Below, piece after piece: positions 4,607 through 36,411 of a stretch of 64,000 nucleotides of DNA (positions are counted from its first letter, which is position 1; every line of letters begins with the position of its first letter). This DNA is from an uncultured Bacilli bacterium (GTDB lineage: Bacteria; Bacillota_I; Bacilli_A; RFN20; CAG-449): contig CANRPC010000001.1 of assembly GCA_947632435.1 (NCBI GenBank), positions 75,986 through 139,985 on the forward strand. Direction: 5' to 3'. The position numbers and the translations under genes are program-made. The notes beneath the pieces are model-generated. The model was not told the origin of the DNA and did no database searches. It saw only the letters and a list, made by a program, of their open reading frames with translations.

Positions 4607-5986
4607 ATGAAAAAAATATTACTTAATACGCTAATATTTTCTTCGGTTATAGTTGGAAGCATGATGCTTTCATCTTGTAATAATGTTAGAAGATCGGTTT
4701 CCTTAAAAAATGGGGATCATTATTTTATAAATAATTCTTATATTGATTTAAATAATATTCCAGAACAAATTCAATTTGCAATTGAAATTGAAGGAAAAAT
4801 TCAAGATATTTCTGTTGGAACAATTTTAATTAAACCAAAAGATTTTAATTATAGGAAAGGCATTTTAACAATTAATGGTAATGTTTTAAAAGATGAATAT
4901 GGTGAATTAAAAATTTCTTCTGGCGATAATAGATTTGAAATTTTTACAGGGTCAACAATGTATTATCATAGTTGTCTAATGGTCGATAAAGTAATTAAAA
5001 CACCTGAAGATTTCCAAAGTATAAATAACAATCCTTTAGGATCATATATTCTTGGAAATGATATCGATTTTGAAAACTCTAATATTACTAATTTTGAACC
5101 ATTAGGTTATGCCGAAAGTGATTCCCATTATAATCAAGAATTCGGTGGAGTTTTTGATGGTAATGGTTATGCCATAAAAAATTTACAAACACGTTATAGT
5201 TTAGATGGTCCAGAAGATGATAAAGTCGATGGAATAGATCAATATGAAGGTCATTTTGTTTTCCAAGATGATGCTCATAGTGCAGGTACTCAATTTGGTG
5301 TTTTCCAATCAATTTCAAAAAGTGGCATTGTAAGAAATGTTTCATTTAATAATTGTTTTATTTTCGGTAAGACAATTGTTGGTGTAGTTGCTGGTACTAA
5401 TAATGGATTAATCGAAAATGTATTTATCGATAAAAATTGTCAAGCAATAGCAGCAACCCATTTTTATGATGATGATTGTAATGTTGGTACAATTGCAGGC
5501 ATTAATGGTGAAGGAACAATCAAAAATGTCATTTCTATGGGAACATCAAAAATCGTTAAGAATTATATTGATTATGATGATAGTGCTTATGATGATTTAG
5601 CAACGGAAGAAGTTGAAACTAGTCATAATTTCTGGAGTGGCATAAAAAGTGAAGAAAATATGGATTCAAATGGATTAGTTTCAACTGGAGTATATGCAGG
5701 AATTGGAATGTCTTGGGGAGAAGCATATGATTGTGTTGCAATGCAATTTACAAATGCAAGTGTTGCACCTAATCTTTATGCACCATTTGGTCAAACTCAT
5801 TTAGCCATTAATAAGCCATCTAGTGGTGCTGAAAATACAGGATTAATTAGTAATTGTGTAGTCTTAACAGAAGATGAAATGAAAAATGCAAGTACTTACA
5901 CTAAATTTTCATCTGCTATTTGGAATATAAGTGAAGGAACTATTCCAACATTTAAAAATCCATATCCAACTGCTAAATATCATTAA
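4607..5986 (+). CDS. Surface lipoprotein with a GLUG-like domain
   Basis: Signal peptide plus lipobox (LSSC). Motif EFGGVFDGNGYAIKNL plus GVFQS, paralogous to the motif in 3207..4589 and 19967..22265. Confidence 0.45.
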   Translation: MKKILLNTLIFSSVIVGSMMLSSCNNVRRSVSLKNGDHYFINNSYIDLNNIPEQIQFAIEIEGKIQDISVGTILIKPKDFNYRKGILTINGNVLKDEYGELKISSGDNRFEIFTGSTMYYHSCLMVDKVIKTPEDFQSINNNPLGSYILGNDIDFENSNITNFEPLGYAESDSHYNQEFGGVFDGNGYAIKNLQTRYSLDGPEDDKVDGIDQYEGHFVFQDDAHSAGTQFGVFQSISKSGIVRNVSFNNCFIFGKTIVGVVAGTNNGLIENVFIDKNCQAIAATHFYDDDCNVGTIAGINGEGTIKNVISMGTSKIVKNYIDYDDSAYDDLATEEVETSHNFWSGIKSEENMDSNGLVSTGVYAGIGMSWGEAYDCVAMQFTNASVAPNLYAPFGQTHLAINKPSSGAENTGLISNCVVLTEDEMKNASTYTKFSSAIWNISEGTIPTFKNPYPTAKYH

Positions 5987-19889: not shown

Positions 19890-19939
19890 GAAATCGATTT
19901 CTATAAAATCTTGCAAATAAAACCGCTTTCATGTATAAT
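19890..19939 (+). promoter_or_regulatory. Promoter of the phase-variable surface-protein gene. It comprises the palindrome GAAATCGATTTC (19890-19901), a -35 TTGCAA (19911-19916), a cre-like site AAAACCGCTTTCA (19918-19931), and an extended -10 TGTTATAAT (19932-19939).
   Basis: Read directly. It is paralogous to 16667-16716. Confidence 0.5.
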
Positions 19940-19966
19940 TTATTTGAAAAGGAGAGAGTAAAAAAA

Positions 19967-22265
19967 ATGAAAAAATTTAAAAACTCAAAACTTATTGCTC
20001 TTACTGCTTTTATGCTATTTGGAGCAAATTATGCTGCACAAGCAAACTATAATAATAAAATTGTAACAAAAGCTGAAGCTAATGATGTAGTTACAATTTC
20101 AAACAAAGAAGATTTATTAAAGTTCTTTGATGGAAGTGCAAATTCATGTAATAAGGATGCTATTCTTACAGAAGATATAGATTTAGAAGGAAAAGTATTT
20201 GTTAATGTAGCTATGGCAGGCGAATACAACGGAAATTTTGATGGGGGGGGGGCATACAATTTCTAATTTTATTTCCAAAGGTCCTGGTTTATTTAATATA
20301 ATTGGTACTAATGGTAAAGTATCTCAATTAAATTTATCTGTTGATAATGGTGGTAAAATTGGTGGTGGAACTCTTGCTTATCAAAATAATGGTACAATTG
20401 AAAATTGTTTTGTACATTTAATTTTATCTGAAAGTTGTAATACATATGGAGCTATTTGTTTAGTAAATAGTGGATCAATTATTAACTGTAAAACTTATAT
20501 TGAATTTTTAGATAGTGCTACTTCATCAAATAACATTTATCCAATTGCAAAAAATGGAACATTTACTGATTGTAGTTATAACTCTAATCAAACAAATGGA
20601 TTTGCAAATTTTGAAAAAGTAACTCGTGATGAATCTATTACACCAAATCAAAATATGCCAACATTAGATCAACTTGAAACACCAACAGATGTTAAAGTTG
20701 AAAATAATGTTCTTTCATTTAATCCTGTTGATAATGCAACAAATTATGAAGTTACTTACTTTGATGAAACTGGAAGTAATAAAAAAACAGAAAAAATTTC
20801 ATCAACTACTTATACTTTAACTGATGACTCACTCTTTCCTGGAACATACACAATAAAAGTTAGAGCCTTAGGCGATAATAAAACATATGCTAATTCAGAA
20901 TATGCTATTGCCACAGGTACTTTTGTTGTTGAAGAAAAAGAAGGTTTACCAATTGAGATAAATAATGCACAAGAAACTTCAATTAATGGAGATCAAATAT
21001 TTATTTATACTTCAAATTTAGCTAATGCAAAACAGGAAGATATAAGCATTAGAATAGTTAATATTGAAACAAATAATCATAATAATGATGAATTTTATCA
21101 ATCTTTAATTAATTCATCAGCTAAAATTCAAGAATTTAATGTTTATTCTGATGCAAGTCAAAGAATTTATGGAATATTGAGTAAAGGTTTACCAGAAGAT
21201 AATGAACGAATAATTACGGTTGAATTAAGTGCAGTAGTAGGTAAACAATTCTATAAACAAAAATTAATTTTTGTAGGAAAAGAATATAAACCTAATTATG
21301 GTAAAATAGAAGAATTATCTGCTCCAACAAATGTTTCATTAGTTGATAATACTTTAAAATTTGATGAAGTAGAACATGCTATTGGATATCATGTTCAATA
21401 TCGTAATGTTAATGGTGGTGTAGAAGCTGAACATGATATAGAACCTAATGGTGAATTAACAGCCAAATTAGAAGAAGGAACATATACATTATTTTTAAGA
21501 GCTCTTGGTGATGAAATAGATTATACATCATCTTCATATGTTGAAGTTTCTGAAAAATTTATTGTTGCTGGAAAAGAATTACCTGAACTTGGTGCTCCAA
21601 TAAAGATAAAAGAAGAAGGAACAAAAATTTCGGGTGATCAAGTATTTATTAGATTTGAAGATGCTCCAGATATTACAAAAGAAGATTTCACTATAAAAAT
21701 TATTGATTGTGTATCTGCAAGCGGAAATGGAGTTGCTGATGTTATTAAAAAACAAACTCTTAAAAAAGTAAGTTATTCAAATGGTGAATTATATTGCACA
21801 ATGGGTGCAGGTATTCCTGATGAAACTGATTTAGTTACAACAATTAGAGTTTCATATGAAAAAGATAATGTCGTTTATTTACAAGAATTAGTATTTGATG
21901 GATTAAAATATGATTCTGAAAGAGCTGAAGATTGTAATTTAGGATATGCATATCCATATGGCACCCAAATGAGTCAAAATAATACAAAGATTCGTTATAT
22001 TGGTAAAGTATATGTTGGTGCTAAAGCAGTTGTAGATTTATCAAGTAAATATGCAAATATTAAATTTAAAATTGCTGCAAAAATCAAAGGTGAAGAAAAG
22101 TGGACTGAATTAACCACTAATATGATTATGAAATCATTAAATGCTGGATTTGGTGAACAAGTTACTGCAGAAGATGGATGGTACTATTGTGCGGTTGTAA
22201 TAAATAATTTGCCTACAGGTGAAAACGCTTTTGAGCCTCTATCTTTCACTGTGACATTAGAATAA
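19967..22265 (+). CDS. Large surface protein (signal peptide, GLUG-like motif, repeat region, conserved C-terminal domain). It is split into two ORFs (to 20266, and 20238 onward) by a +1 frameshift inside a G10 homopolymer. This is probably a phase-variable gene currently in the OFF state.
   Basis: ATG 19967 with RBS aaaggagag. Signal peptide MKKFKNSKLIALTAFMLFGANYAAQA. ORF1 ends ...GNFDGGGAYNF* and ORF2 continues GGGHTISNF. With 9 or 12 G the reading is NFDGGGHTISNF, which matches the FDGnGhtIsN GLUG-like motif of the paralogs at 3207 and 4607. Confidence 0.6.
20243..20252 (+). repeat. Poly-G homopolymeric tract (G10) inside the surface-protein gene. It is a candidate slipped-strand phase-variation switch.
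   Basis: Ten consecutive G in a genome of roughly 28% GC. The tract sits exactly at the frameshift joining the two ORFs. Confidence 0.8.
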
Positions 22266-22554: not shown

Positions 22555-23484
22555 ATGATTATTAACACTGGGCAAAGAACAGATATACCAGCATTTTATT
22601 CTAAATGGTTTATAAATAGAATAAAAGAGGGCTATGTTTTAGTTAGAAATCCATTTTATCCAAAATTAGTTACTAAATTTATTTTAGATCCTAATGTTGT
22701 TGATGTTATTGGATTTTGTAGTAAAAACCCTAGACCAATGTTTCAATATTTAAATGAATTAAAAAGATTTGGTCAATTTTGGTATATAACAATAACTGGT
22801 TTTGAAAATGATATAGAACCTAATGTTCCTTCGATTAATCAAGTAATAGAGGACTTTAAATATTTATCAAATAAAGTTGGAGTATTGTCTATATGCTGGA
22901 GATATACACCAATTATTATCAATGAAAAATATACTTTAAAAAGGCATATAGAAACATTTAAATATATCGCAGAAAATCTTAAAGGGTATACTTCTCTTGC
23001 TGTTTTTGGTTTTCTTGATTTATATGATAAATTAAAAAAGAATCATCAAGAACTTAAAGATTGCTCTGATGAAGATAAAATCATTATTACTAAAGAATTT
23101 ATAAAAATTGCTAAAAATAATAATATGGAATTAAGATTATGTTCAAAAGAAAAATGGCTTCAAGATTATGGAATAGATGTAAATGGTTGCATGAGAATTG
23201 AAGACTATGAAAGAGCAATTTCATCAAAGTTAGTAATTAAAAAGAAAATGCAAGCAAGAAAATCTTATTGTGCTTGCTATTTATCTAATGATATTGGAGC
23301 TTATAATACTTGCTTACATTTTTGTTCTTATTGCTATGCGAATAAAGATAAAAATGAAGTATTAAAAAATAATGCTCTTCATGATGATAATTCACCATTT
23401 TTAATTGGTAATTTAAAAGAAGATGATGTTATTAAAGAATATCCTGCAAAAAGCAATAAAACTGATGAAATAACTTTATTTTGA
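22555..23484 (+). CDS. DUF1848-family protein with a C-terminal Cys cluster (CxxxCxxC)
   Basis: The N-terminus MIINTGQRTDIPAFYSKWF matches the conserved start of DUF1848 proteins as I recall it. C-terminal CACY...CLHFCSYC. Confidence 0.45.
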   Translation: MIINTGQRTDIPAFYSKWFINRIKEGYVLVRNPFYPKLVTKFILDPNVVDVIGFCSKNPRPMFQYLNELKRFGQFWYITITGFENDIEPNVPSINQVIEDFKYLSNKVGVLSICWRYTPIIINEKYTLKRHIETFKYIAENLKGYTSLAVFGFLDLYDKLKKNHQELKDCSDEDKIIITKEFIKIAKNNNMELRLCSKEKWLQDYGIDVNGCMRIEDYERAISSKLVIKKKMQARKSYCACYLSNDIGAYNTCLHFCSYCYANKDKNEVLKNNALHDDNSPFLIGNLKEDDVIKEYPAKSNKTDEITLF

Positions 23485-23681
23485 TTTTTGTATAAGTTTA
23501 AAGCTTATAATTTTTAACACAATAATTTAATATTAATTTGATTTTAACATTTATTTTTTTTAATAATTTTTCACAAAAATAAATTAATTTTGTTTGTTTT
23601 CATATCAAACGGAACACTTTATTGACAAATTATTTATATATTAGTATATTATAAATGAATCAAATATTTAGGGGTGCAAAA

Positions 23682-24281
23682 ATGAACAAAAAAAAATATT
23701 CTTCATCGATAAAAAAAACACCATTTAAATATACAATATCAAAAAAAATAGCTGGATTAATGTTAAATAAATTAGATAGAAATGAAATTTATAACACATG
23801 TTTTAATTGTAATTATATTGAAATTGATTCTCTTGAAAGAAGAAGAGAAATTACAAATGTTATCTATAATAGGTTGTTAGAACTAGATAATTATTTGCTC
23901 GATTATTTTTATAATGGAGATGTTATAACTTCTAAATTTATTTTAGTATATGCTATAGCAAAATCCGATTCACTTTTTTTTGATTTTTTATTTGAAGTAT
24001 ATCGCGAAGCTTTGTTAGGAAATAAAAATTATATTTCAATTGATGATTTTGAAACATTTTTTTCTTCAAAAAAGGAATGTGATGTTGTTGTTTCAAAATG
24101 GGGAAATTTTACAATTGACCAATTAGCCAAAGGATATAGGAATATTTTAGTTGAATCTGGACTTGGAACTAGAATTAAAAGAAATATAAATGTTGAAAAG
24201 ATAACTATTCATCCAAATATTGAAGAGCATATTCAATTAATTGGAGATAAAAAATTTTTACAAGCATTATTAGGAGTGTAG
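23682..24281 (+). CDS. brxA: BREX type 1 BrxA (DUF1819-like)
   Basis: About 200-aa helical protein, first gene of a six-gene cluster with BREX-1 order and sizes. Start chosen at the internal ATG 23682 (RBS aggggtg), because the ORF-track ATG 23655 sits within the predicted -10 region. Confidence 0.5.
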   Translation: MNKKKYSSSIKKTPFKYTISKKIAGLMLNKLDRNEIYNTCFNCNYIEIDSLERRREITNVIYNRLLELDNYLLDYFYNGDVITSKFILVYAIAKSDSLFFDFLFEVYREALLGNKNYISIDDFETFFSSKKECDVVVSKWGNFTIDQLAKGYRNILVESGLGTRIKRNINVEKITIHPNIEEHIQLIGDKKFLQALLGV

Positions 24282-24286
24282 TAAGT

Positions 24287-24895
24287 GTGAGAAGTATAAA
24301 TGAAAGAAGTTTGAATGAACGTTTTAATGAACTTGAGGATAGAATGCAATCCGTTGAATCATTAACAAGATATGGTACTGCCAACGACATGAAGTTTTAT
24401 ATTTTTGATTATAATCCAAAAGATGAATACGCAGTTAGAAAAGAAATCAAAAAATTAAAAGAACATAATCAAAATATTATTGAATTTGATCTATATGAAA
24501 TGATGCTTGAAATCATTGAGAAACAAGGATATACAGAAGATGTAATTCGAGCAGAAACAGAATATGATAAAGAACATTTGCTATCTGAGATTTTTCAACC
24601 TATTTTATCAGTTGAAGAGTCAAATAATGAGTTTTTAGAAATGTTTAAATTAAGGGCATATGATGATGGATCAAAAATCATTTTGATAACAGGTGTAGGA
24701 AAAGCTTATCCAGTAATTAGAAGTCATACAATACTGAATAATTTACAAAGCATTTTCAGAAAAAATCCTGTTGTCATGATGTATCCAGGAAGATATGAAA
24801 CTAAGCAAAAAATGACTTTACGATTGTTTGATCGATTAGATGATGATAATTATTATAGAGCATTTCCACTAGTTGAAAGGAGAATTAGCAAATGA
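24287..24895 (+). CDS. brxB: BREX type 1 BrxB (DUF1788-like)
   Basis: 202 aa, second gene. Its stop overlaps the brxC start (ATGA). Confidence 0.5.
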   Translation: MRSINERSLNERFNELEDRMQSVESLTRYGTANDMKFYIFDYNPKDEYAVRKEIKKLKEHNQNIIEFDLYEMMLEIIEKQGYTEDVIRAETEYDKEHLLSEIFQPILSVEESNNEFLEMFKLRAYDDGSKIILITGVGKAYPVIRSHTILNNLQSIFRKNPVVMMYPGRYETKQKMTLRLFDRLDDDNYYRAFPLVERRISK

Positions 24896-27800
24896 TTATA
24901 AAAGATTTATTTAAAAAACCTATTGATAGAAGTATTCAAGGCGTAGTAACTATAGGTAATGAAGATGAAGAACAAAAATGGCAAGAATTAGAAGAATATG
25001 TTTGTACAGGAGAAATTACAAAACAATTTAGAATTTTCTTTAGAAAATATCGCGAATCAATTGCTGCTCCTACTGAAAAAATGGCTGCTTGGGTTACTGG
25101 ATTTTTTGGCTCTGGTAAATCACATTTTCTTAAAATATTAGGTTACATTCTTGAAAATGAGATAGTAGCTGGAATGAATGCAGTTGACTATTTCAATGAT
25201 AAAATTCAAGATGAGATGCTGCTTGCTGATATGAAAAAATGTGCTTCAGCAAATAACAAAGTTGTCTTATTTAATATTGATTCAAAAGCAAAATCAGATT
25301 CTAAAAATAAGACTCAGGCTATTATGGATATCATGCTTAGAGCATTTAATGAATCTGTTGGTTATTGTGGTGATAGACCATGGGTTGCGGATCTTGAAAG
25401 AATGCTTGATGAAGAAGGGTTATTAAATGATTTTGTTACTAAATTTGAAAAACTTTCTGGTCGTGATTGGAAAGCAAATCGATCAAAAGCTGCATTAAAT
25501 AAAAAAATCATAATTGATGCTTTAGTAGAAGTTAGAAAAGTTCCAAGAACAGATGCTGAAGATTATATTAATGATCAAATTAATAATTACACAAATTCTA
25601 CAGAGGATTTTGCAAAGATTGTTAACGAATATTGCAAAAAGAATAAAGCAAGAATCATTTTCTTGATGGATGAAGTTGGACAATTCATAGGTGATAATAC
25701 ACAATTAATGTTGAATTTACAGACTTGTGTTGAAGATTTGGGAAAATATTGTAAAGGACAAGCATGGGTTGTTGTTACATCACAACAAGAACTAAAAGCT
25801 ATGATTGATTCTACTAAGGATAAACAACAAGATTTTTCAAAAATTCAAGCAAGATTTGACACTAGAATTTTATTAAGTGGAGCAGAAGCAGGAGAGGTTA
25901 TAAAAAAACGTATTCTTGATAAAAAGGATAATGCAGTTAATTCTTTAAAATCATTATATGATAGCAATGCAAATAAAATTTCTAATTTAATTTTATTTGC
26001 TGGAACTCCTTCATGGAGCGGATATAAAGATGCAGAAGATTTTAAAAATGTATATCCTTTTGTGCCATATCAATTTGAATTACTTCAAAAGGTTTTCACT
26101 GCAATTAGAGAACATGGTATGTCTGAAGGTAAACATCTTGCACACTCTGAACGTTCTCTTTTAAGTGCATTTCAAGAATCTGCCAAAAAATATAGTGATG
26201 CTGAAACAAATATATTAATTCCATTTGATAGTTTTTATTCTACAATTGAACAATTTATTGATTGGGATATAAAAAATGTTTTTACTTCAGCAGAAAATAA
26301 GGCAACGCTTAGTGATTTTGATTTAAGAGTTCTAAAAATTTTATTTATGATTCTTCATGTAAAAGAAATGCCTGCAACAATAGATAGAATTGCAACATTG
26401 ATGATTGAATCGTTAAATGAAGATAAAGTTTTATTAAAAAAAGACATTGCTGAGTCATTAAAGGTTTTAGAAAAAGAAACATTAATTCAAAAAAATGGTG
26501 ATGAATTTGATTTTTTAACTAATGAAGAACAAGATGTTAATAAACAAATTAATCATGTCGATTATAATGAAGGCGAAGTTAAAAGAAATATTCTAGACAT
26601 TGTTTATGATAAAGTTCTTGAGCTAACTACTAAATTTCGTTATAAAAATAGATATGATTTTTCACTAAATAGATATGTTGATGATGAATTAAAAGGCAGT
26701 CATGGACAAGATAATATCTCTATTAAAATTATGACTAATTTTTCTGGAATTTCTGATCCAACCATGTTTGCGTCAGAATCTACAAGGAGCAATGCTCTAG
26801 TTGTTGATTTAACTGAAGGTAATTTTATTGAAGAATTAACTAGAGCAAACAAAATTTCACTTTATAAAAGAAACAATAGCAGTTCTTTATCTGTTTCAAT
26901 GACTGAAATTATGGCAAAGAAATCAGCTGAGCTTTCAGAAAGAGTTAAGAGAGCTGAAGAAATTATTAAAGAGTCACTTAGATCAGCACCAATTTATTTT
27001 AATGGAAATATAATTGATATAAAACAAAAAGATGGTAAAGATAGGTTAAATGATGCCTTAAATCAAGTTGTTGAACAAGAATATTATAAATTAGGATATG
27101 TGTCTTATTTTTATCAAGACCAAAAATCAATTTTAGAAGTTTTAAATTCAAATAATAATGGATTGTTTGGGAATGACATTGCAGGAGATGCAAATGAAAA
27201 AGCATTTCAAGAAATTTTTGATAAAATAAAAAATGATAAAAATATTGCTAAAAGAACAAATGTAAAAGAATTATTGGATCATTTTTCTAAAAAACCATAT
27301 GGTTGGAGAGATTTAGATGTTCTTGGTATGGTAGCTAAATTATTTAAATTAGAATTACTTCAAATATTTATTCATGATGTTCTTGTTGATGACAAAAATT
27401 ATAGTTTTAAAAATGATTTTGTAAAGAAAAATAGTCTTGATACAATGGTTGTTAGAGTTCAAGAAAAAATAGATGAATCAGTATTAATTCAAGTAAAACA
27501 AATTATGAATAAAATTTATTCATTATCACTTCAAATAAATGAATCTGAAATGAAAAAAGAGGTATTAAATTTCTTTACTAAAAAAAGAGATTTCTTAAGT
27601 AATTTAAAGATTAAATATGGTAATGAATTTGCAGGAGCTTCTTGCGTTCCTAGCATTTATAAAGATATTGATGAAATTGTTAGAACAAATGATTCTGCAA
27701 CTATTTTTAATGAAATTATTTTAAGAAAATATTCACTTGAAGAAAAATCTGAGATTTTAGAACAATTAGAAAGTTTTTACAAAGATGGCAGTAATCAACA

Positions 27801-28452
27801 AAAGGTATATAATGATGCTTTAGAAATTGTTAAATGGTATTACCAAAACAACAATTTATTGAATGCTTTAAATAAATTAGATGACGTAATTTTTAGTATA
27901 GATGAAATTCTTAAAATGGATGTTCCTTTTACTAAAATTAATCTATTAAGTGATTTAGTATTCAAAGCAGGAGAAGTAAAAGAACAAATATTAGAAGAAA
28001 AATATAATGAAGTAATTAATTCATTAAATGATGATCAAAAAAATATTAAAAATGAATTTGTTGGTGTTACAAGTTCTGATTTATCTGAATTTAAGAAAAA
28101 CAAAATAAAAGATAAATATGATAAGATTGAACATATGTATCAATCATGGTATAACACTTTATCAAATAAAACTCAAAATCTTGATTCTTATGTTGTATCA
28201 AGTCAAAACACAGTGGAAGATTTCAAAAAATTTATTAGTTCTATAATGGCTGAGGTGGAATCTATTCCTTATGGTGATAATTCTAACCAACCAGTAAAAG
28301 AAATAAAAAGAAAAAATGTTAGAGTCATTGATTGTGTTCCTATTGCTAAGAAAAGAATAAAGTCAAAAGATGATATTGATAGTGTTATTCAATCAATTAG
28401 AAAAGCATTAGAAGAAGCACTTCAAAATAACGATGAAATAACAATTAATTAA
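24892..28452 (+). CDS. brxC: BREX BrxC/PglY ATPase
   Basis: 1186 aa. N-terminal IQGVVTIGNEDEE...WVTGFFGSGKSHFLKILGYILEN matches the BrxC/PglY P-loop region (GxFGSGKSHF). A long helical C-terminus. Confidence 0.85.
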   Translation: MIIKDLFKKPIDRSIQGVVTIGNEDEEQKWQELEEYVCTGEITKQFRIFFRKYRESIAAPTEKMAAWVTGFFGSGKSHFLKILGYILENEIVAGMNAVDYFNDKIQDEMLLADMKKCASANNKVVLFNIDSKAKSDSKNKTQAIMDIMLRAFNESVGYCGDRPWVADLERMLDEEGLLNDFVTKFEKLSGRDWKANRSKAALNKKIIIDALVEVRKVPRTDAEDYINDQINNYTNSTEDFAKIVNEYCKKNKARIIFLMDEVGQFIGDNTQLMLNLQTCVEDLGKYCKGQAWVVVTSQQELKAMIDSTKDKQQDFSKIQARFDTRILLSGAEAGEVIKKRILDKKDNAVNSLKSLYDSNANKISNLILFAGTPSWSGYKDAEDFKNVYPFVPYQFELLQKVFTAIREHGMSEGKHLAHSERSLLSAFQESAKKYSDAETNILIPFDSFYSTIEQFIDWDIKNVFTSAENKATLSDFDLRVLKILFMILHVKEMPATIDRIATLMIESLNEDKVLLKKDIAESLKVLEKETLIQKNGDEFDFLTNEEQDVNKQINHVDYNEGEVKRNILDIVYDKVLELTTKFRYKNRYDFSLNRYVDDELKGSHGQDNISIKIMTNFSGISDPTMFASESTRSNALVVDLTEGNFIEELTRANKISLYKRNNSSSLSVSMTEIMAKKSAELSERVKRAEEIIKESLRSAPIYFNGNIIDIKQKDGKDRLNDALNQVVEQEYYKLGYVSYFYQDQKSILEVLNSNNNGLFGNDIAGDANEKAFQEIFDKIKNDKNIAKRTNVKELLDHFSKKPYGWRDLDVLGMVAKLFKLELLQIFIHDVLVDDKNYSFKNDFVKKNSLDTMVVRVQEKIDESVLIQVKQIMNKIYSLSLQINESEMKKEVLNFFTKKRDFLSNLKIKYGNEFAGASCVPSIYKDIDEIVRTNDSATIFNEIILRKYSLEEKSEILEQLESFYKDGSNQQKVYNDALEIVKWYYQNNNLLNALNKLDDVIFSIDEILKMDVPFTKINLLSDLVFKAGEVKEQILEEKYNEVINSLNDDQKNIKNEFVGVTSSDLSEFKKNKIKDKYDKIEHMYQSWYNTLSNKTQNLDSYVVSSQNTVEDFKKFISSIMAEVESIPYGDNSNQPVKEIKRKNVRVIDCVPIAKKRIKSKDDIDSVIQSIRKALEEALQNNDEITIN

Positions 28453-28463
28453 GAGGTGAACTT

Positions 28464-31045
28464 ATGGATAAAAGGGCATTACAAACTTATGCTGAATGGG
28501 CTAAGAAAAACTTAGAAAATCAAATTGAAGTTTCACTAAAAACATTAGGAATTAATAGCGATAATGATATTAAACAAGCTAGAAAAGTTGGTGAATATAC
28601 GATTATAGATGGAGATTCTAATTCCTATTCAGCAGATTTATATGATAAGCGAAATGATATTACAAATTTGATTAAATCAGATGGTTACAAAAATGTTATT
28701 GAAGAGTTTGCGTATACTTGGTTTAACAGAATAATAGCACTTAGATTTATGGAAGTTCATGACTTTTTACCTCACGGATTTAGAGTGCTTTCTTCTAGAG
28801 ATGGTAGTTTTGAGCCTGAAATTCTTAAAAATCTTAATTATGTTAAAGATGATTTAAAGTTAGATATGAGTATTATAGCTAGTCTTAATTCTCAAGGTAA
28901 AATAGAAGAAGTTTATCGATATGTTTTATTTAAACAATGTAATGCATTATCTAAGATTTTACCTATGCTTTTCAGTAATGAAAGTGCATATTTAGAATTA
29001 CTTCTTCCAAAAGCATTATTAAAAGGTGACACAATAATTACTAAACTTTTAGAAATAGATGAAAATAGCTTTTTAGAAGATGTAGAAGTAATTGGTTGGT
29101 TATATCAATTTTATGTAGCAAATGATAGACAAGAATTTAGAGATGCCAAAGTAGTCACAAAAGATTTAATTCCAACATTAACACAAGTATTTACTCCAGA
29201 TTGGATTGTTCGATACATGACAGAAAATTCACTTGGTAGATTGTGGCTAGAAAGTTATCCTAATTCTTCAATAAAATCAGAAATGAAATATTATGTTGAA
29301 GATGCAAAACAAGAAGAAGATATTCAAAAGAAAATTAATGAAATTAAATACAAAAATGTAAATCCCGAAGACATTAAAGTTATTGAACCATGTTGTGGCT
29401 CGGGACATATTTTAGTGTATATTTTTGATTTATTATTTAAAATGTATGAAGAAAAGGGTTATCAACAAAGAGAAATTCCTTCTTTGATATTATCTAAGAA
29501 CATATATGGATTAGAAATTGATAAACGTGCTACACAGCTTGCCACATTTTCATTAATTATGAAAGCAAGAAAATTAAATAATAGGTTTTTTAATGAAAAA
29601 TATTATGTTGAACCAAATGTAATTGAAATTTATGATTCAAGATTCTTTTTGGACTTTGATTATAAATCACAAATGGTAAGTTTAAAATTATTTAGTGACG
29701 AAGAAATAAAAGCAACAACTGAACTTATTGAAACATTTAGGTATGCCAAAACAATTGGATCACTTTTAATTATGCCTAAGATTAATATTTCATTAGTTGA
29801 AAATGTAATTGAAAAATTAACTAATAAAGCTGTTAATACTATATTTAATAATAAATTTATTGCTAATGGTCCTAAATTTCTTTCAAAATTAATTAATCAA
29901 TATAAAATAATGGCTAATAAATATGATGTTATGATCACAAACCCACCATATCTTGGAATATCAAAAATGGAAGCAAATCCTAAACGATATTTATCAGCAA
30001 AATATCCTAATAGTAAATCAGATATGTTTGCAATGTTTATGGAAACACCATTTGTTAAGAAAAATGGATTTAGAGCTATGGTAAATCCTGATTCTTGGAT
30101 GTTTCTTGTTAGTTATGAAGAATTAAGAAAGCAAATTATATTTAATGAAAGCATAGTGAATATGATTCATTTAGGGCTTGGAGCTTTTGATGCAACTGTT
30201 CAAACGACTTCATTTGTTATACGTAACTCTGCAATTGCTGGAAATGGTGTTTATTTCCGCCTTGTTGATGAAAAAGATAAAGAAAAAGCATTTTTGTCGG
30301 GGGGGGGGGTATAACTGCTAAATTAATTACCTTTTATAAAATACCAGGTTGCATATTATCATATTGGATTTCTAAAAAAACCATTGATAACTTCTTAAAT
30401 AAAAAACTTGGCGATGTAATAGTTACACGTGAAGGAATGGCAACAGCAGATAATGATAAATTTTTAAGACTTTGGAGCGAAGTTGCATTCACTAAAATTT
30501 ATTTTTGTGCAACTGATTATATTAATGCATTATATACGGGATATAAGTGGTTTCCATATAATAAGGGCGGTGTATTTAGAAAATGGTATGGCAATAATGA
30601 ATATATTGTAAATTGGCAAAATGATGGATTTGATATAAAAAATAACAAAGATGAAAAAAGCAAAAAAATTAGAAGTCACAATTATAATGGCAAATATGGT
30701 TTTTTGGAAGGAATTACATGGAGTTCGCTTTCAACGGGGTCCTTTTCATTAAGATATTCTCCTAAAGGATTTTTGTTTGATTCGAAGGGAGCAAAAGGCT
30801 TTCCAAATAATTCGAACGAAATTTGGTTTATTATGGGGTTATTAAATTCTCAAGTTGCAAAACATTATCTATCGTTTATAGCTCCAACAATTGACTATAA
30901 AGTTGGTGATATTATTCAAATACCATTTATAAAAAACAAAGAAAATAAGGTTAACGAATACGTTAAAAAAAATATTCAAGTTGTAAAGAAAGATTGGGAT
31001 TCTTTTGAAACTTCATGGGATTTCAAAAAACACCCATTAATATAA
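28464..31045 (+). CDS. pglX: BREX PglX N6-adenine DNA methyltransferase (N-terminal domain, MTase core and first target-recognition module). It is interrupted by a frameshift in a G11 tract, giving ORFs 28464..30314 and 30311..31045.
   Basis: N-terminal YTWFNRIIALRFMEV (the conserved PglX start). SAM-binding EPCCGSGHIL and motif IV NPPY (MITNPPYLG). The protein continues without a stop in the -1 frame after the G-run (GGG ITAKLITFYKIPGCILSYWIS...). 9 or 12 G would restore the frame. Confidence 0.75.
30299..30309 (+). repeat. Poly-G homopolymeric tract (G11) within pglX. It is a candidate phase-variation switch, currently OFF.
   Basis: Eleven consecutive G located precisely at the pglX frameshift. 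G-tract phase variation of pglX is established for the Streptomyces Pgl system and other BREX loci. Confidence 0.8.
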
Positions 31046-31086
31046 GGAGCGCATTCCTCCTAAATGAATGCAAAGGAGGAAAAAAT

Positions 31087-31818
31087 ATGGAATCAAAACA
31101 TTTAAGATATGAGATAGCATCTACAAAATTTAATATGATACCTGGAAATCCTATTGCATATTGGATAAGTAATGCGTTTAGAAATATTTTTTCAATGGGA
31201 ATTCCTATCGAAAAAATAGGAGACGTTAGGACAGGGATATCAACTGGTAAAAATGATTTATATCTTCGTTTATGGTATGAGATATCTTGTAGTTCTATTA
31301 ATTTTTATCAAACTAATATTAATAAGATTAACTTAAATGAAAAAAAATACATTCCTTATAATAAAGGTGGTGATGCTAGAAAATGGTATGGCAATAATGA
31401 ATATGTAGTTAATTGGTCACAGCATGATAAATTTCATCGTAGCAGACCTAATTTTTCAGATATTTATTTAAAAAAAGGATTAACTTGGTCATTTGTTACT
31501 TCTGGCATGTTTTCATCAAGATATTATCCAAATGGTTTTTTATGGGATGTTGCTGGATCTCCTTGCGTTTTTAATGATGATAGCAGTTTATATTATATTT
31601 TAGGATTTCTATCTACTAAAATTGCTTCTAATATTTTAAAGTTAATTAATCCAACCCTTAATTGTCAAGTAATTGATATACAAAGAGTTCCTATAATTGA
31701 TACTGATAATGATAAGGATAAAGTTATAAATATCTCTATTATGTCAGTTAAAAAATCGAAAGATGATTGGGATTCTTTTGAAACTAGTTGGGATTTCAAA
31801 AAACATCCATTAATTTAA
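31087..31818 (+). CDS. Second, divergent copy of the PglX target-recognition module, encoded as a stand-alone ORF with a strong SD
   Basis: 244 aa from ATG 31087 (SD aaaggagg at 31072-31079). It is paralogous to residues after the G-tract in pglX: both contain AYWIS, LRLW, YNKGG..RKWYGNNEY.VNW, and end with the identical DWDSFETSWDFKKHPLI. The central regions are diverged. Confidence 0.6.
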   Translation: MESKHLRYEIASTKFNMIPGNPIAYWISNAFRNIFSMGIPIEKIGDVRTGISTGKNDLYLRLWYEISCSSINFYQTNINKINLNEKKYIPYNKGGDARKWYGNNEYVVNWSQHDKFHRSRPNFSDIYLKKGLTWSFVTSGMFSSRYYPNGFLWDVAGSPCVFNDDSSLYYILGFLSTKIASNILKLINPTLNCQVIDIQRVPIIDTDNDKDKVINISIMSVKKSKDDWDSFETSWDFKKHPLI

Positions 31819-31835
31819 AAGAATAGGAGTCATAT

Positions 31836-32894
31836 ATGGCAAACAAGAACAATAACAAAGAAGTCACAATACGAAGTTCTGCTGCAGAATATTTAACTTA
31901 TGTGGCATCGGTAGGAGAAGAAACGCAAAATATAGAGGTAAGGTATGAAGATGAAAATATATGGTTAACGCAAAAAATGTTGGGATTACTTTTTAATGTT
32001 GAACCCCATACGATTAATTATCATATTAAAAAAATATTTGCAGATAGTGAATTAAGTGAAGATTCAGTTACTCGAAATTTTCGAATAACTGCCAGTGATG
32101 GAAAAACTTATGAAACAAAGCATTATAATCTTCAAATGATTATCGCAATTGGTTTTAAAGTTAACTCTGAAAGAGCCGTTCAATTTCGTAAATGGGTAAA
32201 CCAAATTGCATCCGAATATACAATTAAAGGATGGGTTATGGATGATGAGCGATTGATTAGAGGAACTTATTTAACTGATAAGTATTTTGAAGAACAATTG
32301 GAAAGGGTTCGTGAAATACGTGCCTCTGAAAGAAAGTTTTACCAAAAAATAACCGATTTATATGCTACTGCAATTGATTACGATAAGGAAGCTTTAGCAA
32401 CAAGAAGATTTTATGCCACAGTTCAAAACAAAATGCATTATGCTATTCATGGCCATACAGCAGCAGAATTAATTGTAGAACGGGCAGATTCAAAAAAAGA
32501 ACATATGGGACTTACTACATGGAAAGATAGTCCTGATGGAAAGATTCAAAAATCAGATGTAATTATTGCTAAGAATTACTTAACTGAATTTGAACTTAGT
32601 CAACTAAATAGAATGGTAAATGCGTATTTGGATTTTGCCGAAAATATGGCTCAAAGAAAAATTCCACTTACAATGGAAGATTGGGAAAACCGGCTTAATT
32701 CATTTATTGAAATGTTTGAATATGGGCTTTTAAAAGATGCGGGCAAAGTTTCAAACGAAATTGCAAGACTTCACGCAGAAACAGAGTTTGAAAAATATAG
32801 AGTAATTCAAGATGCATTGTTTATGTCCGATTTTGATAAGTATGTGCTTGAATTGGAAGAACATATTAAAAAAAATAAAAACAATAAGAAGTAA
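31836..32894 (+). CDS. rhuM: RhuM-family (virulence-protein RhuM / Fic-DOC-associated) protein embedded within the pglX region
   Basis: YNLQMIIAIGFKVNSERAVQFRKWVNQIASEYTIKGWVMDDERL is highly characteristic of RhuM-family proteins, which are commonly inserted between hsdM and hsdS of type I R-M loci. RBS aggag 7 nt upstream. Confidence 0.75.
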   Translation: MANKNNNKEVTIRSSAAEYLTYVASVGEETQNIEVRYEDENIWLTQKMLGLLFNVEPHTINYHIKKIFADSELSEDSVTRNFRITASDGKTYETKHYNLQMIIAIGFKVNSERAVQFRKWVNQIASEYTIKGWVMDDERLIRGTYLTDKYFEEQLERVREIRASERKFYQKITDLYATAIDYDKEALATRRFYATVQNKMHYAIHGHTAAELIVERADSKKEHMGLTTWKDSPDGKIQKSDVIIAKNYLTEFELSQLNRMVNAYLDFAENMAQRKIPLTMEDWENRLNSFIEMFEYGLLKDAGKVSNEIARLHAETEFEKYRVIQDALFMSDFDKYVLELEEHIKKNKNNKK

Positions 32895-32906
32895 AGGAAC
32901 AATTTT

Positions 32907-33842
32907 ATGGGAAGATTAATAGCTGATAAATTTAAGCAATGGGAAGAAGAGTGTCAAGAAAGATTTAATACTTTAAAAGCCAACGAAGAAGAATTAAACA
33001 GAATTTTCATTGAAATATATGGACTTCAAGATGAACTAACACCTGAAGTTGCAGATAAAGATGTTACTGTTAGATTAGCAGATAGAGAAAGAGATATAAA
33101 GTCATTGATCTCCTATATGATTGGTTTAATTATGGGAAGATATTCCTTAGATGTTGAAGGACTAGCTTATGCTGGAGGCAAGTGGGATTCAAGTAAATAT
33201 ATCACATATAAACCTGATGATGAAGGAATTGTCCCTATATATTCTAAAATTGGTATGTCAGATAGTTTAACTGCAAGAATTATTGAACTTATTAAACATA
33301 TTTATGGTGAGGATACATATCGAGCAAATATAGACTTTATTGCTGAAACTCTAGGAAAAAAACAAAATGAATCATCTGAGGAAACATTAAACAGATATTT
33401 ATGTGATGATTTTTATAATGATCATTTAAAAATATATCAAAAAAGACCTATTTATTGGATGTTTTCAAGTGGTAAAAATAATGGATTTAAATGTCTTATT
33501 TATCTTCATAGATATAGTGAAGATACTCTTGCTATTATTAACTCTAAATATTTTTTAAATGAATCTGCAAGATTAAAAAGAGAAATTGAAGATCTTTTTA
33601 TTCAACTTGAAACCGCAGAAGGAAAAGATAAAATTCGTCTTGAAAAAGAAAAAAAATTAGTGGAAGCAAAATATAAAGAAATGATTGAATATGGACAAGT
33701 ATTAGACCATATGGCAAATCAATATATTCAATTGGATTTAGATGATGGTGTTAAAGTAAATTATGCAAAATTTCAAGGCATTGAAATAATAAATGATAGT
33801 GGTGCAAAAGTTAAAAAAGACTTATTAGTTCCAATAAAGTAA
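32907..33842 (+). CDS. pglX: C-terminal domain of PglX, encoded as a separate 311-aa ORF
   Basis: NRIFIEIYGLQDEL, KRPIYWMFSSGK and GFKCLIYLHRY resemble the conserved C-terminal region of BREX PglX / type IIG-like MTases. This is from memory and not searchable here. Size sum: 616 + ~245 + 311 = ~1170 aa, the normal PglX length. Confidence 0.55.
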   Translation: MGRLIADKFKQWEEECQERFNTLKANEEELNRIFIEIYGLQDELTPEVADKDVTVRLADRERDIKSLISYMIGLIMGRYSLDVEGLAYAGGKWDSSKYITYKPDDEGIVPIYSKIGMSDSLTARIIELIKHIYGEDTYRANIDFIAETLGKKQNESSEETLNRYLCDDFYNDHLKIYQKRPIYWMFSSGKNNGFKCLIYLHRYSEDTLAIINSKYFLNESARLKREIEDLFIQLETAEGKDKIRLEKEKKLVEAKYKEMIEYGQVLDHMANQYIQLDLDDGVKVNYAKFQGIEIINDSGAKVKKDLLVPIK

Positions 33843-33856
33843 GGAGGTCAAACTAA

Positions 33857-36397
33857 ATGGCAAATATAGATTATCAAGAAGCCAAAAAAGAAATAGATAA
33901 GATATTTGAAAATAATATTGGTGAAAGAAAAATTGTTTTTTGGTATGATGCTCCAAAAAATTTTGAAGAAGATATAAAATCAGATAATTTTGAAAAATGT
34001 AAGCTTCTTATTTGTGATAGAAATGAATTTGAAATCAAAAAAACAATTGAACACGATGATTTAGAATCTAATTTTTTGATTTATATCCCAAACGAAAAAC
34101 CAATTGATACTGAAAATTGGTTATTGGATATTCTTATGTATAGTGAAGAATATTATGCTGATACAGTTGCTTTAATAATGAGACGATTCAATCTTTCTAA
34201 TAATGATTTAAGAAAAGTCATTGAAAGTCATTCAAAGTTTTTTGATAGTGAAATTAGAAGCAAGAAACTTTCATCTTATATAAAAATTAATGATAATATG
34301 ACAAGAGATCAATTTAAGTTAGCTATGATGGCGGTTTTAACTAAATCAGATCTATGTTCTATAGAATCAATATTAGAAGAACTTGTATTTGATGATCATG
34401 AACATACAAAATACAATGAATTAAAGAAATTTAAATTTGAAAATTATCTATGGGACCAAATTTGTGAATATTTCAATTATGATGGCGATTTAAAAATTGA
34501 AATGCTTATTAAAAGATTTATATTTACTACTTTTTTAGAACAAATAGAAAATGATGATAAAGAATATTTCACGAAATTGCCATCATATTATGATCAATTT
34601 GTTATTAAGGAAAAAGGTGTAAATGATGCTAGATATTTTATAAATAAAATTAAAAATGATAAAAGGTATGAAAAACTTCAAAATAATCTTGCAGATGAAA
34701 TGAAAATTGAAGGTCTTATTTCTACAAAAGATTTAATGAGTATTCAAAGTGCGGATGTTTTTGAATGCTTTGACAATTTTATTATTGATAAGATTGCTAA
34801 TAGTTTACAAAGTGGTAGTTTAGATTATGAAACTTTTCAAAGAATTATTTATAATCGTATAAATTCAATTTGGTATGAAAAATATAAAAATAAATACAAT
34901 TTTTTATTATCAGTAATTAAATTTTTAAAGGAAATTGAAAAACCAATTAGTCTTGATTCTACAGTTAATGATTATATAATGCAATATACTAAGGAATACT
35001 ATAAAATTGACATGTTTTATAGACATGTTTGTGCAAGCTTCAAAAAAATTGATTCTACAGAAGTTTTTGAAAATTTGATTAATAGAATTGAATCTTTATA
35101 TCAAAATAACTTTTTAGATATTTTAGGAAAAAATTATAATGGTGCATTAAGTAGTCAAAAAGATTGGAATTTTATTGGTGTTAATATGACAAATGATTTC
35201 TATCAGTATATTCAAAAAAATCCTGCAAAAAAAATGTTTGTCATTATATCTGATGCTTTACGATATGAGATAGGATATGAAATATATGAACAAGTAAAAG
35301 CAGATCCAATATTAAAAGGTGGAGCAGAAATTAAATATGCAATTAGTCCATTACCTTCTGAAACTCGTCAAGGAATGGCATCTTTATTACCACACAAAAC
35401 GATTACATATAAAAATAAAGCTTTTTATGTAGATAATGATATGCCTACAAATTCTATTGATGCTAGAAATAATATTTTACAGGCAAAAAATAAAGGATAT
35501 TCAGCAATTAAATTTGATACGATTAATTCATTAACACAAAGTAAATTACGCCAATATATGCAAGATAAAACTTTAGTTTATATCTATCATGATGTTATCG
35601 ATAATGCAGGAGAAAATAAAGAAAATGCAGTATTTGATGTAGTTCAATCTGCAATTGATGACATTATTACTTTAGTAAAAAAGTTATATAATAATTTACA
35701 AATTTCAAATTTCTATATTACGGCAGATCATGGTTTTTTGTATAGAAGAAACGAAATTCATGAATCTAGTAAATATAGTAATATTGTTTCTTTAAAACCA
35801 ACAGAAGTTGCTAAACGTTACGTATTAACTGATGATGAAACATTATCAATTCCGTATACTACTGAATTTAATTTAATTAATTTATCAAATGGTAATATGA
35901 AAGCTATTACTCCAAATGGATATGATTTATTTAAAACACAAGGAGGAGGAATCCAATATGTTCATGGTGGTGCTTCCTTACAGGAAACAATTGTGCCTAT
36001 AATACATATTAGCGAATTAAGATCGAGTAAGTTAAAAGATAGTATTGGACCTGTTGGTGTAAGATTAAAGAGTATAACACGTAAAATAACAAATAGAAGT
36101 TTTACTTTAGAATTTGAACAATATGAAAAAGTAGAAGATAAAAAACAAGCTATAACATGTGAAACATTTATAATTGACGAATTTGGTAATAAAGTTACGA
36201 ATGAATATAAATTTGTAGCTAATTCAAATAGTGATGATTCTTCTACAAGAATTTCTAGAATTAGATTTACACTTAAAAATATTGAATTTGATAGGAACAG
36301 ACCTTATTTTATGATATTAAAAAATATAGATAAACCAGATGAATACATTGAGAAGGAACTTTTCACAATTGATATTATTGGATTTAAAATGTTTTAA
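33857..36397 (+). CDS. pglZ: BREX PglZ (alkaline-phosphatase-superfamily)
   Basis: 846 aa. N-terminal RKIVFWYDAPKNFEED. Central PglZ-domain motif MFVIISDALRYEIGYE. Confidence 0.85.
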   Translation: MANIDYQEAKKEIDKIFENNIGERKIVFWYDAPKNFEEDIKSDNFEKCKLLICDRNEFEIKKTIEHDDLESNFLIYIPNEKPIDTENWLLDILMYSEEYYADTVALIMRRFNLSNNDLRKVIESHSKFFDSEIRSKKLSSYIKINDNMTRDQFKLAMMAVLTKSDLCSIESILEELVFDDHEHTKYNELKKFKFENYLWDQICEYFNYDGDLKIEMLIKRFIFTTFLEQIENDDKEYFTKLPSYYDQFVIKEKGVNDARYFINKIKNDKRYEKLQNNLADEMKIEGLISTKDLMSIQSADVFECFDNFIIDKIANSLQSGSLDYETFQRIIYNRINSIWYEKYKNKYNFLLSVIKFLKEIEKPISLDSTVNDYIMQYTKEYYKIDMFYRHVCASFKKIDSTEVFENLINRIESLYQNNFLDILGKNYNGALSSQKDWNFIGVNMTNDFYQYIQKNPAKKMFVIISDALRYEIGYEIYEQVKADPILKGGAEIKYAISPLPSETRQGMASLLPHKTITYKNKAFYVDNDMPTNSIDARNNILQAKNKGYSAIKFDTINSLTQSKLRQYMQDKTLVYIYHDVIDNAGENKENAVFDVVQSAIDDIITLVKKLYNNLQISNFYITADHGFLYRRNEIHESSKYSNIVSLKPTEVAKRYVLTDDETLSIPYTTEFNLINLSNGNMKAITPNGYDLFKTQGGGIQYVHGGASLQETIVPIIHISELRSSKLKDSIGPVGVRLKSITRKITNRSFTLEFEQYEKVEDKKQAITCETFIIDEFGNKVTNEYKFVANSNSDDSSTRISRIRFTLKNIEFDRNRPYFMILKNIDKPDEYIEKELFTIDIIGFKMF

Positions 36398-36411
36398 GGG
36401 GGAAAACAAAT

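Follow-up and report, generated by a model that had tools for sequence, protein, structure and literature searches.

The pglX gene of the type 1 bacteriophage exclusion (BREX) operon described here is probably a conserved, naturally modular variant with a phase-variable architecture, and not a gene interrupted by an excisable insert. The operon occupies positions 23655-38439 of a 64,000-nucleotide stretch (the window) of contig CANRPC010000001.1, from assembly GCA_947632435.1 of an uncultured Bacilli bacterium, and has the order brxA-brxB-brxC-pglX-pglZ-brxL. A first-pass annotation had read pglX as a methyltransferase (MTase) core joined in one open reading frame (ORF) to a first target-recognition domain (TRD), and after it a 1.88-kb cassette of a second TRD and a rhuM gene that lay between two 7-bp ATTAATA repeats and could be excised to restore PglX. 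Its ORFs, repeats and in-frame arithmetic were confirmed, with correct coordinates throughout for the TRD1 end (stop at 31043), TRD2, rhuM and the C-terminal ORF, while the meaning given to the repeats and the single core-TRD1 ORF were not. Of its interpretation, the identity of the C-terminal domain and the fallback that this domain acts in trans found support, and the excisable cassette did not. The features of the pglX region are the following:

28464-30314, + strand: pglX piece 1, an N-terminal helical domain and an N6-adenine MTase domain, 616 aa (Pfam Eco57I, N6_Mtase, MmeI_Mtase)
30299-30309, + strand: poly-G tract of 11 G at the MTase-TRD hinge, one of two G/C runs of at least 6 in the window
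30311-31045, + strand: TRD1 (pglX piece 2), the position-1 TRD, stop-free and in a different frame from the core
31036-31042, + strand: first ATTAATA copy, in codons of the P-L-I end of TRD1
31043-31089, + strand: TRD1-TRD2 intergenic two-state RNA element, from predicted folds
31087-31818, + strand: TRD2, a free-standing TRD ORF of 243 aa with its own ribosome-binding site (RBS) and ATG, ending HPLI-TAA and preceded by AAAGGAGG
31836-32894, + strand: rhuM-family gene in the cargo slot (PF13310, E=1e-106)
32907-33842, + strand: pglX piece 3, the stand-alone C-terminal ORF (311 aa, start MGRLIADKF, own RBS)
32915-32921, + strand: second ATTAATA copy, in codons of the R-L-I start of the C-terminal ORF

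Profile matches and alignments assigned each piece to a part of PglX. Piece 1 holds the S-adenosylmethionine motif I (EPCCGSGH) and the motif IV NPPY of a gamma-class N6-adenine MTase core, and matches the PADLOC PglX profile with E=2e-203 over positions 1-613 of 1174. Residues 13-243 of TRD2 align with residues 647-870 of BrxX (E=1e-39), and its AlphaFold2 (AF2) model, with a predicted local distance difference test score (pLDDT) of 88.9 and a Foldseek TMq of 0.83 to Salmonella PglX (8c45), gives a confident TRD fold. The ORF at 32907 is the PglX C-terminus, as had been proposed: its residues 59-291 align with 945-1189 of E. coli BrxX (E=2e-55), and it covers positions 878-1166 of the PADLOC profile. 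A single PADLOC PglX profile is tiled by the core (1-613), TRD2 (626-869) and the C-terminal ORF (878-1166), and the solved BrxX is covered in the same way (up to 630, 647-870 and 945-1189). The pieces do not form a single polypeptide, the series being broken by stops at 30312-14, 31043-45 and 31816-18 and the C-terminal domain being separate, and the same holds in all close relatives. TRD1, about 42% identical to TRD2, ends ...SWDFKKHPLI with a TAA at 31043-45 and lacks its own start codon close to the 5' end, the first in-frame ATG lying at 30437. It belongs to a clade of poly-G-linked position-1 TRDs that carry an ATDxIxA signature, which is an insertion.

The link between the MTase core and TRD1 depends on the length of the poly-G tract. 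The core stops at 30312-14, two codons past the 11-G tract, and TRD1 continues in another frame, so that the two are not one ORF as first annotated. With 11 G, TRD1 is out of frame with the core (OFF), whereas 12 or 9 G would give an 860-aa core-TRD1 fusion (ON). The alignment of core residue 608 to BrxX 630 and of TRD2 residue 13 to BrxX 647 places the tract in the flexible MTase-TRD hinge; the BrxX hinge between the MTase domain and the TRD has been described as residues 638-675 (bioRxiv 10.1101/2024.04.12.589305). We drew a census of related loci (L numbers) from genome contigs, protein-encoding contigs and IMG/VR loci. The position of the hinge tract is conserved across these relatives, its length ranges from 8 to 14 G, and permissive lengths are the commonest. 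Related loci in different states are:

ON, L011 and L013 (9 G, 861-aa fusion); OFF, L012 (10 G)
ON, L016 and L018 (9 G); OFF, L017 (8 G)
ON, L056 (9 G); OFF, L055 (8 G)
ON, L058 (9 G); OFF, L057 (10 G)
ON, L003 (12 G); OFF, the window and L002 (11 G)

All but the last of these are near-identical sets with an identical C-terminal ORF or, for L016-L018, an identical TRD2. A homopolymer far beyond what composition predicts, whose length toggles the frame between near-identical loci in four ON/OFF sets, marks the tract as a probable contingency locus, and the core-TRD1 fusion is predicted to be made only at permissive tract lengths. Slippage in the poly-G would switch TRD1-dependent BREX methylation and defence on and off.

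Several loci showed further peculiarities at the tract. The metagenome contig L060 starts exactly at the hinge poly-G (positions 1-15, 12 G), consistent with assemblers breaking at a heterogeneous tract, and the tract of L005 is interrupted (G6TG5). In some lineages an ATG in the TRD1 frame stands just before the hinge tract or 2-3 codons past it (L005 7014-7030, L008 near 5719-5740, L019 near 7246-7265, and proteins P0242, P0218, P0223 and P0303). In such lineages TRD1 could be made free-standing when the tract is OFF, and the G-run itself could act as an element resembling a Shine-Dalgarno (SD) sequence for ATG-bearing TRD1.

The separation of the C-terminal domain recurs well beyond the window. 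Stand-alone C-terminal ORFs form at least 120 clusters at the 90% identity level, nearly all of exactly 311 aa and 76-100% identical. Those inspected start MGRLI[AS]DK, with a canonical SD and ATG in 11 of the 11 loci checked, and the C-terminal ORF shows a ratio of nonsynonymous to synonymous substitution rates (dN/dS) of 0.05-0.10 against its relatives, like brxC, pglZ and brxL. Judged by these comparisons of sequence, the split is old, widespread and under selection. The recurrent layout consists of the core, the G-tract, TRD1, one or two more direct TRD ORFs, optional extra gene(s), the C-terminal ORF and pglZ; it was found in the independent loci L002, L003, L004, L005, L008, L009, L011-14, L015-23 and L052-62, which include Bacilli, Clostridiales and Odoribacter metagenome-assembled genomes (MAGs), and also in L001, the one other contig with a C-terminal ORF identical to that of the window. 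Every split locus of the close family has at least two direct-oriented TRD ORFs, and three are present in L002, L004 and L055. The TRD ORF stops right after HPL[IV] (...WDFKKHPL[IV]) in 24 of 24 cases, the same point at which fused PglX has a linker of variable length.

More distant relatives (45-53% identity in the C-terminal domain) mostly have a single-ORF, single-TRD pglX without a G-tract, and L006, L007 and most of L024-L051 make up this canonical fused outgroup. Three distant loci (L030, L041 and L046) have a core-TRD ORF, then cargo, then a separate C-terminal ORF, with one TRD only; because they too are split there, the boundary between TRD and C-terminal domain is a place where splitting is tolerated and recurs. 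Among fully fused proteins, the nearest one found, P0368, is 73% identical in the C-terminal domain, with a linker of ~30 aa and no G-tract. In the library of 50%-identity representatives, proteins truncated at contig ends obscure the length classes.

The conservation of the 311-aa ORF, which is under purifying selection, has its own RBS and lies in a recurrent layout, favours the fallback of the first-pass annotation that the C-terminal domain acts in trans. The AF2 model of TRD2 closes with a long helix (residues 210-233) and, after it, a DFKKHPLI tail of low confidence, and the C-terminal ORF starts with a long helix of its own (residues 5-38, from AF2 secondary structure only). By alignment, these match the two 'spacer helices' of fused PglX, with the split in the intervening loop. 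At the C-terminal end of the TRD, conservation is highest in the final helix and tail, in agreement with a docking surface that the TRDs have in common for a single C-terminal protein. We infer that this protein may assemble in trans with a TRD via the two long helices, in an HsdS-like coiled coil.

Two groups of relatives bear unusual arrangements at this junction. P0367 (541 aa) and P0369 (562 aa) are closely related to the C-terminal ORF (72-74% identity) and consist of an unrelated ~200-aa N-terminal region, only the last TRD segment (...DWDSFETSWDF.HPL) and the C-terminal domain; these chimeras suggest that the helix pair is a conserved structural unit. In L011-L014 the C-terminal ORF continues the frame of TRD2, and only HPLI-TAG-EVTK-MGR parts the two (L011 ~7985-8003). 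These loci keep the TRD2 stop and the RBS (TAGGAGG), though only one stop and four codons separate the two ORFs.

TRD2 itself has the features of an expressed gene. Its dN/dS is 0.14-0.17, and downstream TRDs are intact in 13 of 13 cases, with an SD and ATG in nearly all. Relatives of TRD2 at 59-79% identity are all stand-alone ORFs of ~240 aa, and those with fetched loci are always in position 2, even where brxC is only 42% identical; position-1 TRDs form a separate clade. Non-orthologous TRD alleles share at most 56% identity. The window, L002 and L003 have wholly different TRD sets in 95%-identical backbones (brxC of the window is 95% identical to that of the other two), and TRDs have therefore been exchanged over evolutionary time. 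Within every sampled set of strain variants, TRD order and content were invariant and the poly-G alone differed. TRD2 looks expressed rather than a silent donor, because it is without sign of recombinational switching, and it may be a translated, functional specificity module that uses the common C-terminal protein.

Folding predictions revealed a possible control of TRD2 translation at the TRD1-TRD2 junction. An anti-SD UUCCUCCU (31054-61) is predicted to pair with the TRD2 SD AGGAGGAA (31074-81), with a minimum free energy of -10.9 kcal/mol, and an alternative hairpin of GCAUUC (31051-56) with GAAUGC (31066-71), at -5.8 kcal/mol, frees the SD. The predicted pairing probability of the SD is 0.99 at the window junction, and it reaches at least 0.8 at 10 of 14 homologous junctions versus 9 of 64 control BREX start sites. 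Equivalent two-state designs of differing sequence are present in most long-spacer loci, some of them nearly isoenergetic (SD-masked versus SD-open, in kcal/mol: L004 -11.9 versus -11.0, L011 -12.1 versus -9.8, L058 -15.8 versus -13.2), and loci with TRD1-TRD2 spacers of 10-14 nt are without the element. It was located at these positions:

L002, 7378-7427
L003, 8357-8404
L004, 727-765
L005, 7746-7791
L011, 7209-7250
L015, 7957-8003
L056, 5662-5707
L058, 6132-6176

In all long-spacer loci, the SD-open hairpin has a 5' arm that starts 7-12 nt past the TRD1 stop, a place that a ribosome terminating on TRD1 would occupy. Such a position suggests that TRD2 translation may be inversely dependent on TRD1 translation, and hence on the phase of the G-tract, with a two-state hairpin that masks the RBS gating TRD2.

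Combined, the core and TRD proteins, the C-terminal protein, the poly-G and the RNA element could make up a BREX specificity switch that needs no DNA rearrangement, a possibility that we put forward tentatively. Free-standing TRDs would be interchangeable HsdS-type subunits that dock on the shared C-terminal protein through a two-helix coiled coil, with the core in trans, and whether or not TRD1 is covalently attached to the core would depend on the hinge poly-G. The RNA element would make TRD2 translation inverse to ribosome traffic through TRD1. With the tract ON, the TRD1 motif would be recognized; with the tract OFF, the core, TRD2 and the C-terminal protein would recognize a different motif. 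The component of this proposal in which TRD2 supplies an alternative specificity selected by the G-tract is, on the sequence data, rather doubtful.

Several points weigh against such a switch and against the modular reading on which it builds. The SD-masked fold is thermodynamically dominant in the window (-10.9 versus -5.8 kcal/mol), which may mean no more than that TRD2 is translated poorly. With the tract ON, a single C-terminal protein would be contested by TRD1 and TRD2. The case for assembly in trans is built solely on conservation and secondary structure; AF2 modelled the C-terminal ORF poorly (pLDDT 61), and Went et al. could not express the C-terminal half of Salmonella PglX, from the TRD to the C-terminus, alone (PMC11341690). 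As for separate subunits like those of Type I restriction-modification (R-M) systems, the TRD ORFs are conserved and docking helices are predicted, while TRD1 is still fused to the methylase when ON. Homopolymer lengths in assemblies can be miscalled, which makes individual ON/OFF calls, including that of the window, uncertain, and all loci are MAG or metagenome assemblies.

As an alternative, TRD2 could be a silent donor, moved by recombination or gene conversion through a 65-nt central and a 54-nt 3' block into position 1 to create a new BREX specificity, in the manner of hsdS or pilS systems but with direct repeats. We consider this unlikely. TRD1 and TRD2 do share the direct repeats D1 (65 nt, central, 85% identical) and D2 (54 nt, 3', 91% identical), which coincide with the most conserved protein motifs of the TRDs; TRD sets are entirely different in the 95%-identical backbones, the stand-alone-leader proteins P0141 and P0319 carry the position-1 signature, and Type I systems with duplicated hsdS switch by recombination (PMC7394358). 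However, all copies are direct, so that reciprocal recombination would delete rather than switch, and no recombinase was found within ~10 kb. The 3' ends are not homogenized within a locus (identity over 51 nt 0.86 within loci versus 0.86 between loci of the close group), and the strain variants, the separate position-1 clade and the constant position 2 of TRD2 relatives described above all count against it. A silent donor would also not need a conserved RBS, an ATG and an RBS-masking hairpin.

Two related routes to switching were tried and rejected. An inversion shufflon was discarded since the whole window contains no further or inverted TRD copies, all TRDs being on the + strand, no recombinase, and only weak inverted repeats (at best 31 nt or less, with ~71% complementarity). 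Gene conversion between TRDs was discarded on the equal 3' identity within and between loci and on the invariant TRD order in strain variants.

Less probable still is that TRD2 is expressed as a regulator or competitor which, for example, binds DNA or the C-terminal protein, damping toxicity or autoimmunity and buffering the transition from OFF to ON. This would agree with a conserved, translated-looking ORF, with the masking of its RBS, and with the lack of a covalent MTase link, which TRD1 always has. The alleles, however, are as diverse as specificity domains (at most 56% identity), a better fit to diversifying target recognition, and the three-TRD loci L002, L004 and L055 are hard to explain as carriers of a regulator.

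Across the compared loci, the space that separates the last TRD from the C-terminal ORF is a variable slot, either empty or holding defence-type genes. In the window it holds the rhuM-family gene, as the first-pass annotation had recognized; the protein matches PF13310 with 356 bits (cut-off 33.7) over 1-247 of 252 profile positions and belongs to the PADLOC candidate defence family PDC-S05 (E=1e-145). The slot contains:

L009, L011, L016 and L019: empty
Window: RhuM (PDC-S05)
L002: PDC-M14A and PDC-M14B; L015 similar, by Pfam matches alone
L005: DUF4357 and an SpbK-like TIR protein
L008: a Hypoth_Ymh/PD-Lambda-3_B HEPN-like protein
L058: Shedu SduA_C (eroded in L057)
L041: FRG/PDC-S15
L046: DUF4760
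L003, and L004 with L052: families without an assigned identity

Since related loci carry different cargo or none, RhuM is an interchangeable passenger and not a partner of TRD2, and it may be defence cargo that functions independently and travels with the operon. Turnover in the slot is rapid: between L058 (6942-7991) and L057 (7593-7991), whose C-terminal proteins are identical, a ~650-nt deletion cuts SduA_C from 349 to 132 aa. One cargo ORF family of ~275 aa, with the start M.KWELAK.IDAKK.VDS, recurs in the slot of an Odoribacter MAG and of an unrelated metagenome contig (L004 2235-3059 and L052 7173-7997); the L004 member has no Pfam or PADLOC match, and the family is a candidate defence gene.

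An MTase core out of frame with TRD1 in the assembly, together with cargo eroding in one relative (L057 versus L058), might be taken to mean that BREX is decaying here, pglX being a pseudogene broken by frameshift, nonsense mutations and inserted genes into pieces without function. This is very improbable. Every piece is under purifying selection like brxC, pglZ and brxL, the same break points, start codons and RBSs occur in dozens of divergent loci, the frameshift lies in a conserved G-run whose permissive lengths are the commonest, and the remaining BREX genes are intact.

There remains the excisable cassette. Deleting 31043-32921 does join HPLI to ADKF in frame, as calculated; a single PglX is not regenerated, because the poly-G frameshift is left in place and 12 or 9 G would be needed as well. 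The ATTAATA repeats, presented as meaningful flanks, are at chance frequency, with 85 copies in the window versus 95.6 +/- 10.4 expected from shuffles, and an extra + strand copy lies at 31318, inside the proposed cassette. In L006 the fused junction reads WDFKIHPLI-QKQA-LIADAF, and other fused PglX proteins have 3 to ~30 aa between HPL[IVL] and the helix. Owing to this linker, the two Leu-Ile pairs are distinct positions of the fused protein and the repeats are not a target-site duplication; there is also no integrase, transposase or recombinase within ~10 kb. The deletion product would lose six residues found at the nearest fused junction (L006), and the comparison with intact homologues proposed in the first-pass annotation showed that no fused homologue examined reads HPLIADKF. 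Precise empty sites were not found among the relatives, the cargo-free L009, L011, L016 and L019 keeping the stop after HPLI and a separate MGRLI ORF. TRD2 and rhuM do not behave as a discrete unit either: TRD2 and cargo vary independently, many loci having TRD2 without cargo and some distant loci cargo without a second TRD. What stands is that, in comparison with canonical fused pglX, additional genes separate the TRD from the C-terminal domain, and the different cargo of related loci means that DNA has been gained or lost here over evolutionary time. With at least 120 clusters keeping the start and RBS of the C-terminal ORF, and L001 sharing the window's layout, it is hardly credible that the 1.88-kb TRD2-rhuM module is lost through ATTAATA recombination to give one 1170-aa PglX as a specificity or regulatory switch, and we rejected this excision on repeat statistics and homologous junctions.

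The rest of the operon is that of a canonical type 1 BREX system. All six BREX genes are co-oriented (+) and in canonical order by PADLOC and Pfam matches, and PADLOC found the genes other than pglX to be intact:

23655-24281, + strand: brxA (PADLOC BrxA, E=3.5e-46)
24287-24895, + strand: brxB (PADLOC BrxB, E=3.6e-55)
24892-28452, + strand: brxC, a 1186-aa ORF whose homologous genes carry BrxC Pfam domains
33857-36397, + strand: pglZ (PADLOC PglZ, E=7e-205)
36412-38439, + strand: brxL (PADLOC BrxL, E=0)

Inside the operon, no terminator or promoter separating the pglX pieces was found beyond chance. The window has a GC content of 25.6%. The operon is flanked by other defence-island genes, upstream a DUF1848 protein (22555-23484; PADLOC 'RTasDUF1848', associated with defence-associated reverse transcriptases, DRT) and downstream (38477-43305) a cyclophilin-like protein, an 891-aa AAA protein matching the candidate PDC-M26A, and its 509-aa partner. 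The BREX locus is chromosomal, because ordinary cell-wall genes (Mur ligases, FtsW) follow the downstream flank. The only other G/C run of at least 6 in the 64-kb window is a second poly-G of 10 G at 20243-20252. It links an ORF at 19931-20266, with the signal-peptide-like start MKKFKNSKLIALTAFMLFGANYAAQA, to a 675-aa ORF at 20238-22265 in a different frame, and likely belongs to a phase-variable secreted or surface protein.

The mechanism of BREX is unresolved, in particular the roles of PglX's N- and C-terminal domains and how methylation is separated from restriction; C-terminal PglX mutations that uncouple the two are cited in a review (PMC12707154). The widespread natural form described here amounts to a ready-made domain dissection, in which the TRD and the C-terminal domain are separate and the MTase-TRD link is toggled. 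It predicts that the C-terminal domain works in trans, and it brings up a testable hypothesis, namely that BREX might draw on exchangeable specificity subunits as Type I R-M does. The TRD/C-terminal boundary, as a recurrent slot for defence genes (RhuM, Shedu, TIR, HEPN and PDC candidates), should be useful for defence-gene discovery. In annotation, such loci will be miscalled as broken or pseudogenized pglX.

Compared with canonical type 1 PglX/BrxX of E. coli HS and Salmonella (PDB 9EWZ, 8C45), the operon order is the same and so is the domain series of N-terminal domain, MTase (NPPY), hinge, TRD, spacer helices and C-terminal region. Canonical PglX is one polypeptide, however, whereas here there are at least three ORFs, a hinge poly-G, an extra free-standing TRD and a foreign gene before the C-terminal domain. 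A 2025 review describes the PglX TRD as integral to the MTase (PMC12707154). For a split PglX there is one earlier record, from Brevibacterium casei, with an N-terminal/middle coding sequence and a separate downstream C-terminal one, read as varying the middle while both ends stay constant (Milman et al. 2023, PMC9881135). The same study describes pglX shufflons in B. casei and Lacticaseibacillus rhamnosus, with recombinase-driven inversions of inverted pglX fragments, and an enrichment of RhuM beside inversion-targeted specificity genes (PMC9881135). Unlike the shufflons, the TRDs here are direct, complete ORFs with their own RBS, neither recombinase nor inverted repeats were found, and it is a homopolymer that varies. 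The word 'split' is absent from the text of a broad 2026 BREX survey, and in the literature searched, outside which most subscription papers lie, we found no prior description of direct free-standing TRD ORFs or of a hinge poly-G in type 1 BREX. The combination of hinge poly-G, direct TRD ORFs, RBS-masking switch, separate C-terminal protein and intragenic cargo slot appears undescribed in that literature.

In Streptomyces, the pglX of the S. coelicolor Pgl system undergoes G-tract phase variation. Homopolymer phase variation is also known in Type I, III and IIG enzymes (PMC9577141, PMC4889913), among them the Type IIG enzyme Cj0031 of C. jejuni, with a poly-G (PMC4889913), and N. gonorrhoeae NgoAV, in which a poly-G between two specificity modules of hsdS changes specificity and does not only turn it off (PMC9577141). 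As in NgoAV and Cj0031, length variation of a G-run inside an MTase or specificity gene alters the reading frame; unlike in those systems, the tract here coincides exactly with the MTase-TRD hinge in PglX of a BREX operon, and it is accompanied by free-standing TRDs downstream and by a C-terminal protein of separate origin in the gene series.

Examples of defence genes embedded in BREX loci, namely BrxU in E. fergusonii and PARIS in Salmonella, have been described before and called 'backup effectors' (PMC12839542, PMC12707154). Those genes sit between BREX genes, while the slot described here is inside the pglX coding series, is recurrent and takes many cargos. The likeness to Type I R-M extends to a methylase core with separate, putative specificity polypeptides that have predicted docking helices, several per locus, and to an operon that harbours unrelated defence-type genes, rhuM among them. 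The C-terminal half of PglX is itself known to resemble HsdS, its two spacer helices having been likened to the dimerized coiled-coil spacers of Type I HsdS (Went et al., PMC11341690). Unlike Type I R-M, there is no HsdR, TRD1 is covalently fused when ON, and each TRD ORF has one TRD and one helix, the second helix and the C-terminal region forming a third protein.

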